Source of the DNA: a virus
Taxonomy: Duplodnaviria; Heunggongvirae; Uroviricota; Caudoviricetes
DNA length: 12,227 bases
Virus record (IMG/VR): IMGVR_UViG_2695420809_000014
Coordinates: 1 to 12,227 of that record
Reading direction: 5' to 3' (one strand)
Shown in pieces: positions 2,519 through 11,443 of this stretch. A model generated the notes under the pieces. It saw only the letters and a program-made list of their open reading frames with translations, did not search any database and was not told the DNA's origin. The position numbers and the translations under genes were made by a program. The stretch's first letter is position 1. Each line of letters opens with the position of its first letter.

Positions 2519-2800
2519 ATGGAAGAATTAAGAATATTTCTCAATTCTCTTTCGTCAGATGAACAGCGTATGTTTGCATGCGAGTGTGGTACCAGCATCG
2601 GTTATCTAAGAAAGGCATTGAGTAAAGGTCAAGTGTTAGGGGCATCGTTATGTGTCCTTATTGAGCGAGCCAGTAATGGTGAAGTTACACGTCAGCAACT
2701 AAGGCCTTTTGATTGGATGAATATTTGGCCCGAGCTGGAAGATACCAAAACGTTAACACAACCACTTTCTAGGAGCTTGATTCATGAAAATCAAGCATGA
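2519..2800 (+). CDS. Cro-like HTH regulator, YdaS family-like (93 aa)
   Basis: ATG 2519 with AAGGAG and 5-nt spacer; C-terminal IERASNGEVTRQQLRPFDW resembles the YdaS/Cro-type motif; divergent from the repressor. Confidence 0.75.
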   Translation: MEELRIFLNSLSSDEQRMFACECGTSIGYLRKALSKGQVLGASLCVLIERASNGEVTRQQLRPFDWMNIWPELEDTKTLTQPLSRSLIHENQA

Positions 2801-3209
2801 ACACATCCGCATGGCGATGAATGCCTGGGCTCATTCGGACGGTGAAAAAGTTCCGGCAGCTGAAATAACCCAGTCTTATTTTGAGTTGGGTATGACGTTT
2901 CCTGAATTGTACGACGACAGCCATCCGGAAGCCCTGTCTCGTAATACCCAGAAAATTTTCCGCTGGGTAGAAAAAAACACCCCTGATGCGGTTAAAAAAA
3001 TTCAGGCGTTGTTACCGGCGATCGAAAAAGCAATGCCGCCTCCGCTGGTGGCCCGAATGCGCAGCCACAGTTCGGAATATCACCGGGAGCTTGTCGAGCG
3101 ACGGGAGCGCCTGGTGAAAGATATCGATGAGTTTGTTGCGGCAGCGATCGTGTTGTTCGATCAGATGAATCGTGGTGGTCCGGCGGGAAATGCCGTGGTG
3201 GCGCATTGA
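2784..3209 (+). CDS. YdaT-like protein (141 aa), CII-type regulator/toxin family
   Basis: Begins MKIKHEHI, which I recall as the YdaT family N-terminus; AGGAG upstream; overlaps the preceding gene by 17 bp. Confidence 0.7.
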   Translation: MKIKHEHIRMAMNAWAHSDGEKVPAAEITQSYFELGMTFPELYDDSHPEALSRNTQKIFRWVEKNTPDAVKKIQALLPAIEKAMPPPLVARMRSHSSEYHRELVERRERLVKDIDEFVAAAIVLFDQMNRGGPAGNAVVAH

Positions 3210-6563: not shown

Positions 6564-6986
6564 ATGACGAAATTTACCAGAGAGCAATTGATTGCTCATG
6601 CTAATGAAAGTGTGAAATCCATGAAATTTGCTGCGCGACAGACCGTGTTTAAGACTTCAAGAGTTGCCATTGAAATGGATCTTGCGCTTGCCCGTATTGC
6701 GCTTGCCTCACTTGAAGCAATGCCAGTTGCATGGTCCTGTGCTCACAATATGGTTTTGTTCAATGCTGAATCTGTTGCGGCATACGCAAAACACTCAGCC
6801 ATTGCGCCAAAACCCCTGTACGCTGCGCAACCGGCATCACTTTCACATGAGGAAGAGTTGGCAATGCTGGTTAAACAATTGGTAAGTCAGTTGAAAAAAG
6901 CGAAACCAGATTGCAAATTACCGGATATGGCGATGGGGTATCTGGAGCGGAATGGGCTGATAAGCGCGGAGGATGTTTTACGATGA
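6564..6986 (+). CDS. hypothetical protein, 140 aa
   Basis: First ATG of the frame (the track's 6513 start is a TTG inside the inverted repeat); weak SD; Ala/Leu-rich helical composition. Confidence 0.65.
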   Translation: MTKFTREQLIAHANESVKSMKFAARQTVFKTSRVAIEMDLALARIALASLEAMPVAWSCAHNMVLFNAESVAAYAKHSAIAPKPLYAAQPASLSHEEELAMLVKQLVSQLKKAKPDCKLPDMAMGYLERNGLISAEDVLR

Positions 6987-7066
6987 CCTGGCCGGAGGCA
7001 TTCACAACGACAGGAATTGCAATGGCGGCAGCACTTGTTGTGTATTCGATTTGCAGCTGGGGATAA
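6983..7066 (+). CDS. small hydrophobic peptide, 27 aa
   Basis: ATG overlaps the upstream TGA as ATGA; MTWPEAFTTTGIAMAAALVVYSICSWG has one predicted transmembrane segment; not in the ORF track. Confidence 0.35.
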   Translation: MTWPEAFTTTGIAMAAALVVYSICSWG

Positions 7067-7277
7067 AAACGGTTTGCGGGGAAATCTTAGTTAAGTAGAA
7101 TGACTGCGGGTGCTTGAGGCTATCTGTCTCAGGCATGAACACCAAAAGGCAGATAGAGAAAAGCCCCAGTTAACATTACGCGTCCTGCACGACGCTTAAC
7201 ATTAATCTGAGGCCCAATCTATGTCTCACAAATGTAGGTTAGCCTCTTACGTGCCGAAAGGCAAGGAGAAGCAGGCT

Positions 7278-7433
7278 ATGAAGCAGCAAAAGGCGATGTT
7301 AATCGCCCTGATCGTCATCTGTTTAACCGTCATAGTGACGGCACTGGTAACGAGGAAAGACCTCTGCGAGGTACGAATCCGAACCGGCCAGACGGAGGTC
7401 GCTGTCTTCACAGCTTACGAACCTGAGGAGTAA
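7278..7433 (+). CDS. hokD: Hok/Gef-family type I toxin (51 aa)
   Basis: Translation MKQQKAMLIALIVICLTVIVTALVTRKDLCEVRIRTGQTEVAVFTAYEPEE matches my recollection of E. coli HokD/RelF; AAGGAG upstream; an in-frame ATG at 7221 would give a 70-aa extended form. Paralogue assignment is uncertain because no relBE is upstream. Confidence 0.85.
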   Translation: MKQQKAMLIALIVICLTVIVTALVTRKDLCEVRIRTGQTEVAVFTAYEPEE

Positions 7434-7503
7434 GAGACCCGGCGGGGGAGAAATCCCTCGCCACCGCTGATGTGTCAGGCATCCTCAACGCACCCGCACT
7501 TAA

Positions 7504-7529
7504 CCCGCTTCGGCGGGTTTTGTTTTTTC
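7504..7529 (+). terminator. intrinsic terminator at the hok transcript 3' end
   Basis: CCCGC-TTCG-GCGGG stem-loop followed by TTTTGTTTTTT. Confidence 0.7.
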
Positions 7530-7600
7530 TGGTCGTTCTGGTTTACAATTCGCACGCCAGCCTGAACAACTGGCACCTGCTGCGCCAGCAGAGACAACCG

Positions 7601-7879
7601 ATGGCGCACGATACCAAATTACACAATTCTGATGATTCTGCCGTCTTTGCCAGCAGGCACGGGCGGCGTTCCCGCACTTTCAAATCTGACTGGTTCCAGC
7701 ATCCCCCATGCACTGAAGAACAGGCCGAGTGGCTAATTCAGTGCTACCGCAGACACGGATACGAGATTAAGAAAGCCCTCAGCCTCGATTATCGTCACTG
7801 GATAATCTCCGTCAGGCTTCCTTACTCCGAGCGCCCACCGCGTCCGTCCCGCACATTCCAGCAACGCATCTGGAGGTAA
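7601..7879 (+). CDS. hypothetical protein, 92 aa
   Basis: First ATG downstream of the hok terminator in an ORF that ends 1 nt before the DUF968 gene start; weak SD. Confidence 0.5.
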   Translation: MAHDTKLHNSDDSAVFASRHGRRSRTFKSDWFQHPPCTEEQAEWLIQCYRRHGYEIKKALSLDYRHWIISVRLPYSERPPRPSRTFQQRIWR

Positions 7880-10278: not shown

Positions 10279-10354
10279 GGCCCTTTAGCTCAGTGGTGAG
10301 AGCGAGCGACTCATAATCGCCAGGTCGCTGGTTCAAATCCAGCAAGGGCCACCA
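10279..10354 (+). tRNA. tRNA with CAT anticodon, closest to the lysidine-type tRNA-Ile2 (ileZ/ileX-like); tRNA-Met not excluded
   Basis: 7-bp acceptor stem GGCCCTT/AAGGGCC, D-arm GCTCAGTGGTGAGAGC, anticodon loop CTCATAA, T-arm GGTTCAAATCC, encoded CCA. Confidence 0.8.
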
Positions 10355-10455: not shown

Positions 10456-10532
10456 GCGTTGTTAGCTCAGCCGGACAGAGCAATTGCCTTCTAAGCAATC
10501 GGTCACTGGTTCGAATCCAGTACAGCGCGCCA
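10456..10532 (+). tRNA. tRNA-Arg (TCT anticodon, argU/argN-like)
   Basis: Acceptor stem GCGTTGT/ACAGCGC, anticodon loop CTTCTAA, T-arm GGTTCGAATCC, encoded CCA; close to E. coli argU by eye. Confidence 0.85.
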
Positions 10533-11163: not shown

Positions 11164-11389
11164 CCGGGTATCAGTTAGCGGGAGAAATTTTTAAATACTT
11201 CACAATTCAGGCGGTTGACTGTTGTCTGGTTTGCGGGGAGTTTGTTAAAAGAAACTGGCATGGTGAATCCCCCTGTGCGGAGGGGCAATCAGCGAGTAGG
11301 TATATGGGATAATCGCGGATTCAGGTGCTGGTACTGAATTCACCGGGAGGCACCCGGCACCATGCAATGGCACATAGCGCCACTCTCCA

Positions 11390-11416
11390 GCCCCTCTCCG
11401 GAGGGGCTGTTTATAT
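11390..11416 (+). terminator. candidate intrinsic terminator
   Basis: GCCCCTC-TCCG-GAGGGGC stem-loop followed by a T-rich tract (TGTTTATATTGATTTT). Confidence 0.4.
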
Positions 11417-11443
11417 TGATTTTGTCAGATGTGAGTAAACTCC

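Follow-up and report, generated by a model that had tools for sequence, protein, structure and literature searches.

A predicted full hok/mok/sok type I toxin–antitoxin module of the hokD/hokW subfamily in a lambdoid Escherichia coli prophage

The hok-type locus described here raises the question of whether it is a regulated toxin–antitoxin module or a silenced copy, which was left open by an initial annotation made from the letters of the DNA. To answer it, the locus was analyzed within the whole stretch of DNA in which it lies, which is 12,227 nt long and is referred to below as the window. The data suggest that positions 7074-7529 of the window very probably constitute a full hok/mok/sok type I toxin–antitoxin module of the hokD/hokW subfamily, which is located in a lambdoid E. 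coli prophage. The toxin gene and its ribosome binding site were found at the following positions:

7278-7433, plus strand: hok toxin gene (HokD), 51 aa, with Pfam, PHROG and PGAP matches
7264-7269, plus strand: hok Shine–Dalgarno (SD) sequence AAGGAG, 8 nt 5′ of the hok ATG, conserved in the alignment

The full-length Hok ORF with its AAGGAG site was thus recovered as the initial annotation had described it. The 51-aa ORF was matched by the Pfam family HOK_GEF (PF01848) with an E-value of 1.2e-23 and a score of 82.9 bits versus a cutoff of 22, and by PHROG 251, named "MokW-like host killing", with an E-value of 2.8e-33. The coding sequence is the same as that of E. coli K-12 hokD, without any differences, while the identity of the protein to HokW, HokC and the Hok of plasmid R1 is 92%, 82% and 39%, respectively. 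The Hok proteins encoded in the 80 best viral-contig loci were all 100% identical to that of the window, and the entropy of the coding sequence among distinct loci with identical Hok was at most 0.06 bit. Judged by its sequence, the product appears to be a small hydrophobic toxin of about 50 aa of the Hok/Gef type, as in the hok/sok family.

The neighboring genes, all on the plus strand, comprise YdaS-like, YdaT-like, O-like and DnaC-like genes, nin-region ORFs, hok, DUF968, RusA and Q, and two tRNAs and the sRNA STnc100 also belong to this plus-strand set. The surroundings are the early rightward operon of a lambdoid prophage, and hok is co-oriented with the operon. The locus sits in the nin region, with the replication genes on one side and the Q antiterminator on the other. 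Both this position and the protein type appear to be those of the hokD/hokW prophage subfamily, which bears out the earlier proposal of a hok-type locus inside a prophage. The 451-nt region of the locus is 100% identical in at least 11 RefSeq E. coli chromosomes, in which PGAP annotates the coding sequence alone, as hokD. At least 80% of this region was found in 3,928 of 5,426 complete E. coli genomes, and 74 phage records reach the same coverage of the query, with the product named there Hok, HokD, gef or MokW. One record (L001), which is 100% identical over the locus, was considered as a stand-in for the whole window, and it was rejected because the two differ downstream of DUF968, where the window has RusA and another Q. 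The value for annotation lies in what the pipelines miss when they mark the 51-aa hokD coding sequence alone, namely mok, the Sok RNA, both promoters and the switch elements, the coordinates of which are given below.

The sense transcript was delimited by the following features:

7074-7101, plus strand: putative hok/mok promoter, -35 TTGCGG at 7074-7079, 16-nt spacer, -10 TAGAAT at 7096-7101
7108-7529, plus strand: predicted full-length hok/mok mRNA, about 422 nt, with the start taken from Rfam and the end from the terminator
7441-7462, plus strand: GC-rich 3′ stem–loop, 9 bp, dG -18.8 kcal/mol, z=-2.9
7502-7529, plus strand: Rho-independent hok mRNA terminator, stem 7502-7519 (7 bp, 5 G-C pairs) followed by a T-run to 7529

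Rfam family RF01794 matched positions 7108-7283 on the hok strand over the full model (1-157), with a score of 120.1 bits versus a gathering score of 59 and an E-value of 1.6e-27; the Rfam family called "sok" in fact marks the sense-strand leader. The start of the transcript was predicted from the sequence at about G7108. In 68 of 100 related loci TAGAAT is located at positions -12 to -7 from the conserved GGGTGC 5′ end, and most of the related loci that lack it have another TAnnnT hexamer there. The structured leader that had been proposed therefore appears to be present, as is expected of the hok/sok family, although it begins at about 7108 and not at about 7090, the region 7074-7101 being the putative promoter. 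The leader hairpin 7168-7208 could be taken for an insertion that sets the locus apart from the Rfam model; this was rejected, as the hairpin is common to Sp5 hokW and most hokD-type loci. The minimum free energy (MFE) of the 422-nt transcript was -167.4 kcal/mol, which corresponds to z=-6.85 versus dinucleotide shuffles. These matches and folds lie well outside what chance would give. Both 3′ structures of the initial annotation were found again with small corrections, as the hairpin ends at 7462 and the stem of the intrinsic terminator starts at 7502. The hairpin is the stable 3′ stem–loop characteristic of the hok/sok family, and processing is expected to leave it at the 3′ end of the translatable mRNA, where it would block 3′ exonucleases; in R1 the truncated mRNA needs the equivalent stem in order to be stable (Le Rhun et al. 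2022, PMC9841398). The terminator (dG -13.3, z=-4.4) was the sole terminator-like site within 6900-7700.

Upstream of hok, the leader contains an overlapping reading frame:

7209-7212, plus strand: mok Shine–Dalgarno sequence GAGG, 8 nt 5′ of the ATG at 7221, invariant in the alignment
7221-7433, plus strand: mok reading frame, 70 codons, in the hok frame, with the hok stop codon common to both

This arrangement, with an SD of its own leading into the hok start, appears to be the upstream overlapping mok frame that is typical of the family. The initial annotation had noted an in-frame ATG at 7221 preceded by GAGG, which would give a 70-aa product, and had set it apart from R1, in which mok is out of frame with hok. 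Both the start and the difference from R1 stand, while the arrangement is not special to the window copy, because mok is in the hok frame, with its ATG 57 nt upstream, in 82 of 102 distinct subfamily loci. In 11 of these 102 loci mok has 19 codons and its TGA overlaps the hok ATG (ATGA), and in eight it is in the +1 frame. A mok-like ATG with an SD was present in 101 of the 102; the one locus in which it was not found, L132, is a truncated entry. K-12 mokC and hokC are also annotated as ending in frame at the same stop codon, ORF-33c of Stx2 phage I is the same 213-nt in-frame mok ORF, and the phage records name the in-frame product MokW. Hence, the in-frame mok appears to be the norm for the HokC/D/W subfamily and no peculiarity of the window.

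The shared frame could also mean that the main toxic product is the 70-aa Mok-Hok fusion rather than the 51-aa Hok, with a single ORF under direct Sok control and no translational coupling. This would agree with the common stop codon, with the fact that the 70-aa product also scores as HOK_GEF in Pfam, and with the in-frame arrangement being that of the subfamily majority. However, relatives with identical Hok use the other two mok frames (11 and 8 loci), which means that the fusion cannot be essential, and the strong hok SD AAGGAG and the hok ATG are conserved. Furthermore, toxicity is seen when hokW is cloned by itself, starting at its own ATG (Takada et al. 2021, PMC8621323). In R1 the GAGG motif of the mok SD is needed for function, and what matters is the translation of mok as far as the hok start and not the Mok product (Le Rhun et al. 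2022, PMC9841398); the use of all three mok frames by loci with identical Hok fits this. We consider the fusion as main toxin to be very improbable.

The antisense gene could not be placed by eye in the initial annotation, which had proposed an alignment with hok/sok loci for this purpose. For this comparison the Sp5-type hokW-sokW locus of Stx2 phage I (L002) was used in place of Sp5; all 14 published primers match L002 exactly. The -10 element of Sok was located by transferring the Sp5 mutagenic primer pair YO-421/422 onto the window, which gave the following features:

7264-7236, minus strand: Sok promoter, -35 TTGCCT at 7264 to 7259, 17-nt spacer, -10 TAACCT at 7241 to 7236
7229 to about 7157, minus strand: predicted Sok antisense RNA, about 71-75 nt, with ends inferred

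The antisense promoter placed by the alignment is the same as the sokW promoter validated by mutagenesis, since positions 7233-7285 of the window, with the Sok promoter included, are identical to the Sp5-type locus. In Sp5, the toxic HokW is neutralized by sokW under the control of its own promoter, and the YO-421/422 mutation of the sokW -10 abolishes the antitoxin activity; over 71 nt, sokW is reported to be complementary to the 5′ UTR of hokW (Takada et al. 2021, PMC8621323). The 30-nt probe YO-597 of the same study matches window positions 7237-7266 exactly; it is given there as an oligo-probe, and its assignment to the hokW mRNA was made here from its sequence. Across 100 related loci, the -35 of the Sok promoter reads TTGCCT or TTGACC and the spacer has a constant length of 17 nt, and 82 of these loci have TAACCT or TAATCT as the -10. 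The -35 end of this promoter is overlapped on the opposite strand by the hok SD. A sigma-70 consensus scan of both strands from 6900 to 7700 returned no promoter, and both promoters proposed here were below its 9-of-12 threshold, in the case of hok/mok because the -35 is weak; hence, the two were placed through their conservation and the homology to the validated sokW promoter rather than by the consensus scan.

The predicted start of Sok at 7229 is 7 nt past the -10. The annotated 5′ end of K-12 sokC, which corresponds to mok nucleotide 9, also falls on window position 7229, and this is independent of the -10 rule. The predicted RNA consists of a 14-nt single-stranded 5′ tail (7229 to 7216) and a long terminator hairpin (7215 to 7161), followed by UUUUCUCU as the U-tract, and its fold has a free energy of about -31 kcal/mol, with z=-5.0. 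The locus appears to contain a cis-encoded Sok gene, with a promoter and a terminator, that is complementary to the mok initiation region.

The elements of the mRNA switch were defined following Le Rhun et al. (2022, PMC9841398), and they were located as follows:

7108-7119, plus strand: tac, GGGUGCUUGAGG, with three mutually exclusive partners, which are fbi, ucb and the metastable partner
7126-7138, plus strand: metastable-hairpin partner of tac, directly 3′ of tac, RNAduplex -16.6 kcal/mol with tac
7161-7167, plus strand: ucb (anti-SD), AAGCCCC, predicted partner of the mok SD in the closed form and of tac in the open form
7216-7240, plus strand: Sok-target (sokT) hairpin, stem 7216-7224/7232-7240, loop 7225-7231, holding the mok start codon
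7242-7246, plus strand: dcb, GCCUC, predicted partner of the mok SD region 7209-7213 in the open form, -9.3 kcal/mol
7483-7495, plus strand: fbi, CCUCAA-C-GCACCC, partner of tac in the full-length MFE structure

In the MFE structure of the full-length transcript, tac at 7108-7119 is paired with fbi at 7483-7495 by 12 bp with one bulge, and ucb is paired with the mok SD (RNAduplex -8.2). In isolation, the leader folds into an MFE structure that is exactly the Rfam consensus, with tac/ucb, SD-mok/dcb and the Sok-target hairpin. The RNA truncated at its 3′ end (7108-7467) adopts the metastable 5′ hairpin of tac with 7126-7138, while ucb and the SD are kept paired. Hence, the MFE structure of the 3′-truncated mRNA did not change spontaneously to the open tac/ucb form, which was obtained from the isolated leader only, and the switch is deduced from the encoded alternatives and is not predicted by the MFE. 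The folding suggests that all three mutually exclusive partners of tac are encoded, and the region 7126-7138 probably acts as the partner in the metastable structure. The predicted closed and open pairings, the metastable 5′ hairpin and the long-range 5′-3′ pairing of tac with fbi are all as expected for a hok mRNA. The RNAduplex comparison of tac against the 3′ UTR discriminated weakly, with 47 of 2000 shuffles equally good, and it preferred a second register at 7468-7485; this register was dropped for 7483-7495, which is present in the full-length MFE structure and is backed by covariation.

The related loci in which covariation was assessed came from two sources, the 80 best viral-contig loci and 54 loci in genomes of Escherichia, Shigella, Kluyvera, Pseudocitrobacter, Pantoea, Photorhabdus and Erwinia; the profile search of genome contigs used a HokC/D/W alignment. 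The resulting alignment (A4) contained 100 distinct full-length loci. On this alignment 92.0% of the full-length structure was paired, compared to 37-42% when the partners were slid by 1-3 columns, although the structure put to the test came from the window sequence, so that the percentage is inflated relative to the slid controls. The covariation score was 0.114 versus at most 0.039 for the slid controls. In the tac/fbi helix 97.7% of cells were paired in the 100 loci, with compensation of U-A to C-G in four sequences and changes on both sides in two pairs. The helix of the 3′ stem–loop was 98-99% paired in the 100 loci, and 27 sequences have a compensatory replacement of G-C by A-U, and the terminator helix was 87.5% paired, with changes on both sides in six of its seven pairs. 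The tac/ucb stem was paired in 94-95 of 95 sequences and the SD-mok/dcb stem in 99-100% of the 100 loci; because both are invariant, covariation is uninformative for them. The identity, presence and conservation of each sequence element were directly observed.

The closest characterized system is hokW-sokW of Sp5 (Takada et al. 2021, PMC8621323), a member of the same subfamily that is found at the corresponding place of a lambdoid prophage. Earlier work has already described the in-frame mok and the location in prophages as well as the family and subfamily, and experiments have been done on a locus with about 93% DNA identity over 417 nt. The Sok promoter, the hok SD, tac and fbi are identical in the two loci, and in both of them mok is in frame with 70 codons and the hairpin formed by the leader and by the Sok terminator is extended by about 16 nt compared to the Rfam model and hokC-type loci. 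They differ in the Sok-target segment at mok codons 2-5 (7216-7235), in the last Hok residues (TAYEPEE versus VDYESEK), and in a few positions of the 3′ stem–loop, the stem of which can be formed in both. The window also has a canonical terminator directly after fbi, while the Sp5-type copy does not. K-12 hokC/mokC/sokC (gef) has the same tac, ucb and dcb as the window, while it is located in the chromosomal backbone and not in a prophage, has IS186 directly downstream, and its leader lacks the hairpin extension, which in this comparison amounts to roughly 18 nt. The more distant hok/mok/sok (parB) of R1 belongs to the same Rfam and Pfam families and is like the window in having a weak hok promoter, the tac/fbi fold-back, the ucb/dcb switch, the GAGG mok SD, the protective 3′ stem–loop and an antisense Sok directed against the mok start; it differs in being plasmid-borne, with post-segregational killing demonstrated.

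The identity of the coding sequence to K-12 hokD (relF), from the cryptic lambdoid prophage Qin, could suggest that the window copy is also a decayed and silent chromosomal remnant, and many chromosomal hok copies are indeed of the decayed type. The homology of hokD to the window begins only at 7265, directly downstream of relBE. It shares with the window the coding sequence, the 3′ stem–loop region and fbi, which is identical in Sp5-type hokW as well, and it retains about 13 nt 5′ of the ATG, while relBE takes the place of the mok start, the Sok promoter, sokT, ucb, tac and its own promoter. In hokA, hokC and hokE the locus is adjoined by IS150 or IS186. On the other hand, the window locus contains no IS element, frameshift or truncation. 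Its leader is entire, the two promoters and the mok start are retained, and so are tac, ucb, dcb, fbi and the terminator, so that the loss of the antisense promoter and of the activating elements, which according to the initial annotation would mark an inactive copy, was not seen. Between the promoter and fbi it is collinear throughout with the functional locus of the Sp5 type, and the differences from the latter are confined to loops, compensated stem positions and the variable Sok-target segment. The reading as a decayed remnant is refuted at the level of sequence, and we assign it a negligible probability; the window copy appears to be the complete form, and K-12 hokD a 5′-truncated remnant.

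How the complete module could work was drawn from its element-for-element correspondence with hok/sok of R1 and hokW-sokW of Sp5, from which we infer the transcript ends, the processing, the toxicity and the trigger. The weak promoter at 7074-7101 would produce a stable mRNA of about 422 nt, in which tac would be kept in the metastable hairpin while the transcript is being made. In the finished transcript tac would pair with fbi at the 3′ end and ucb would cover the mok SD, blocking both ribosomes and Sok. Slow 3′ trimming to the stem–loop at 7441-7462, as established for the mRNA of R1 hok, would remove fbi, and the pairing of tac with ucb would then free the mok SD and expose the Sok-target hairpin. 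Translation from the mok ATG at 7221 would open the hok initiation region, and with mok in frame it could also continue through to the 70-aa product. The short, unstable Sok RNA, transcribed from its own promoter on the minus strand from 7229 to about 7157, would pair with the mok initiation region, leading to its block and to cleavage of the duplex. When the supply of Sok ends, Hok would be made and the inner membrane would be damaged. All control elements appear to be intact in the window copy, and as far as the sequence can tell the question of a regulated versus a silenced locus is answered in favor of the former, with no feature that would speak for inactivation.

The likely role of the module would be faster killing or lysis of the host on prophage induction, stabilization of the prophage, or both. 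In Sp5, Sok vanishes on RecA-dependent induction by mitomycin C, and HokW appears about 1 h before endolysin; when hokW-sokW is deleted, growth arrest comes about 40 min later and only half as much phage is released (Takada et al. 2021, PMC8621323). The modest size of this deletion effect, with a delay of about 40 min and a twofold change in phage yield, could point to an intact locus which is physiologically inert, that is transcribed without Hok ever being derepressed naturally, as a selfish or neutral passenger of the prophage. This is at odds with the strong purifying conservation of Hok and all regulatory elements across hundreds of prophages, and with the HokW protein being made on Sp5 induction (Takada et al. 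2021, PMC8621323), and we regard an inert passenger as unlikely. An inert passenger would agree, however, with a report cited in a preprint (bioRxiv 10.1101/2025.08.07.668861), according to which the intact-looking chromosomal hokA, hokB and hokC show no post-segregational killing or rifampicin activation. If it is expressed, the active module proposed here could change when the host strain lyses, how much phage it yields or how stable its prophage is.

The most variable part of the locus is the Sok-target segment at 7216-7235, which had an entropy of 0.91 bit per site and 18 variants among 68 distinct loci with identical Hok. This segment covers the mok start codon and the loop and arms of sokT, with 14-20 nt, and would be bound by the single-stranded 5′ tail of Sok. 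The avoidance of the same variant within one genome was not strict, as the window variant occurs at 752 places in 706 genomes, with up to three per genome; a strict exclusion of identical Sok-target variants from a genome, which had also been considered, is unsupported by these up to three copies. The Sok promoter is oriented against the early operon, and the cause of the loss of sokW on Sp5 induction has been left unexplained in the literature. We mention, as a possibility that we hold to be less likely than not, that the segment is under diversifying selection among hokD/hokW modules, giving each prophage a private Sok/hok specificity, and that pR-type transcription running head-on into the Sok promoter activates hok on induction. 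If this were true, the Sok of one prophage would leave the hok of a co-resident prophage unsilenced.

The comparison of 68 distinct loci with identical Hok, within an alignment of 100 distinct full-length related hok loci, showed that the segment complementary to the 5′ tail of the predicted antisense RNA Sok (window 7216-7235) is hypervariable. The entropy was 0.91 bit per site at 7216-7227 versus at most 0.06 in the coding sequence, and the segment complementary to the Sok tail occurred in 18 variants among these 68 loci. This hypervariability of the Sok target may reflect diversification of antitoxin specificity. The variant present in the window was found in 706 of 5,426 E. coli genomes, and strict exclusion of the same Sok-target variant within a genome was not observed in this set, as up to three copies per genome were present.

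Inside this one subfamily, mok uses all three frames relative to hok, as seen in the alignment at L004, L010, L100-L102, L106 and L120. Two places carry the indels of 1-2 nt that shift the frame: the GCC-GAAA-GGC / GACC-GAAA-GGUC hairpin, and the loop of sokT, the Sok-target hairpin. In the window, the -1 frame is also open across hok, up to the TGA at 7424-7426. The following features lie in or next to this locus:

6983-7066, + strand: 27-codon ORF encoding the hydrophobic peptide MTWPEAFTTTGIAMAAALVVYSICSWG
7108-7283, + strand (hok-sense): match to Rfam model RF01794
7416-7418: hok Tyr47 codon TAC, within a motif at 7415-7421

RF01794 carries the Rfam name "sok antitoxin (CssrC)". Because its match is on the hok-sense strand and the end of the model coincides with the hok AUG, it models the hok mRNA leader, and not the antisense Sok RNA; hence, the strand of the antitoxin gene comes out wrong if it is read from this match.

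The octamer TCAGGCAT occurs twice in the window, at 7128-7135 in the 5′ hairpin and at 7474-7481 directly upstream of fbi, and this repeat provides a second possible 3′ pairing register for tac, at 7468-7485, with an energy of -22.2 kcal/mol (RNAduplex). An intrinsic terminator after fbi is present in the window (compared stretch 7496-7533) and in most hokD-type loci, while it is absent from the experimentally studied hokW copy of Sp5/Stx2 phage I (L002, 1900-1960), the hok mRNA of which must end elsewhere.

At the Tyr47 codon, the motif (U/C)UACGAA was unchanged in all 100 loci. It is a motif resembling the tRNA-Arg anticodon loop, the motif for A-to-I editing by TadA. Editing of this kind is reported to change a Tyr codon to Cys in hokB, with similar recoding in hokC, hokD and hokE (bioRxiv 10.1101/2025.08.07.668861). 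The candidate edited base in the window would be A7417. Folding gave no support for a local hairpin at this motif (z=0.08).

The 27-codon ORF begins within an overlap with the stop codon of the gene before it and ends 8 nt before the hok -35 element. It had no match in PHROG, and portions of it were also seen upstream of hok in other prophages.

Further features were located elsewhere in the prophage:

2519-3209, + strand: YdaS-like and YdaT-like ORFs, the YdaS-like match being below the Pfam cutoff
10279-10354 and 10456-10532, + strand: two tRNA genes, anticodons CAT and TCT, downstream of the Q antiterminator gene
11229-11418, + strand: STnc100 sRNA (132 bits), downstream of the Q antiterminator gene

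An sRNA and tRNAs downstream of Q are a typical arrangement in the late-promoter regions of lambdoid and Stx-type prophages. In the related locus L001, which is itself divergent from the window here, PGAP annotated tRNA-Ile and tRNA-Arg downstream of Q. The YdaS-like and YdaT-like ORFs occupy the expected place of cro and cII, immediately upstream of the replication genes. The Pfam names of both families include "toxin".

Three hokD-type loci (L099, L109 and L115) on short contigs were identical or near-identical to E. coli prophage sequence, while the assembly labels of this group were Veillonella parvula MAG, Acinetobacter idrijaensis and Xanthomonas pisi. Their presence in non-E. coli assemblies is most likely due to contamination or mis-binning.
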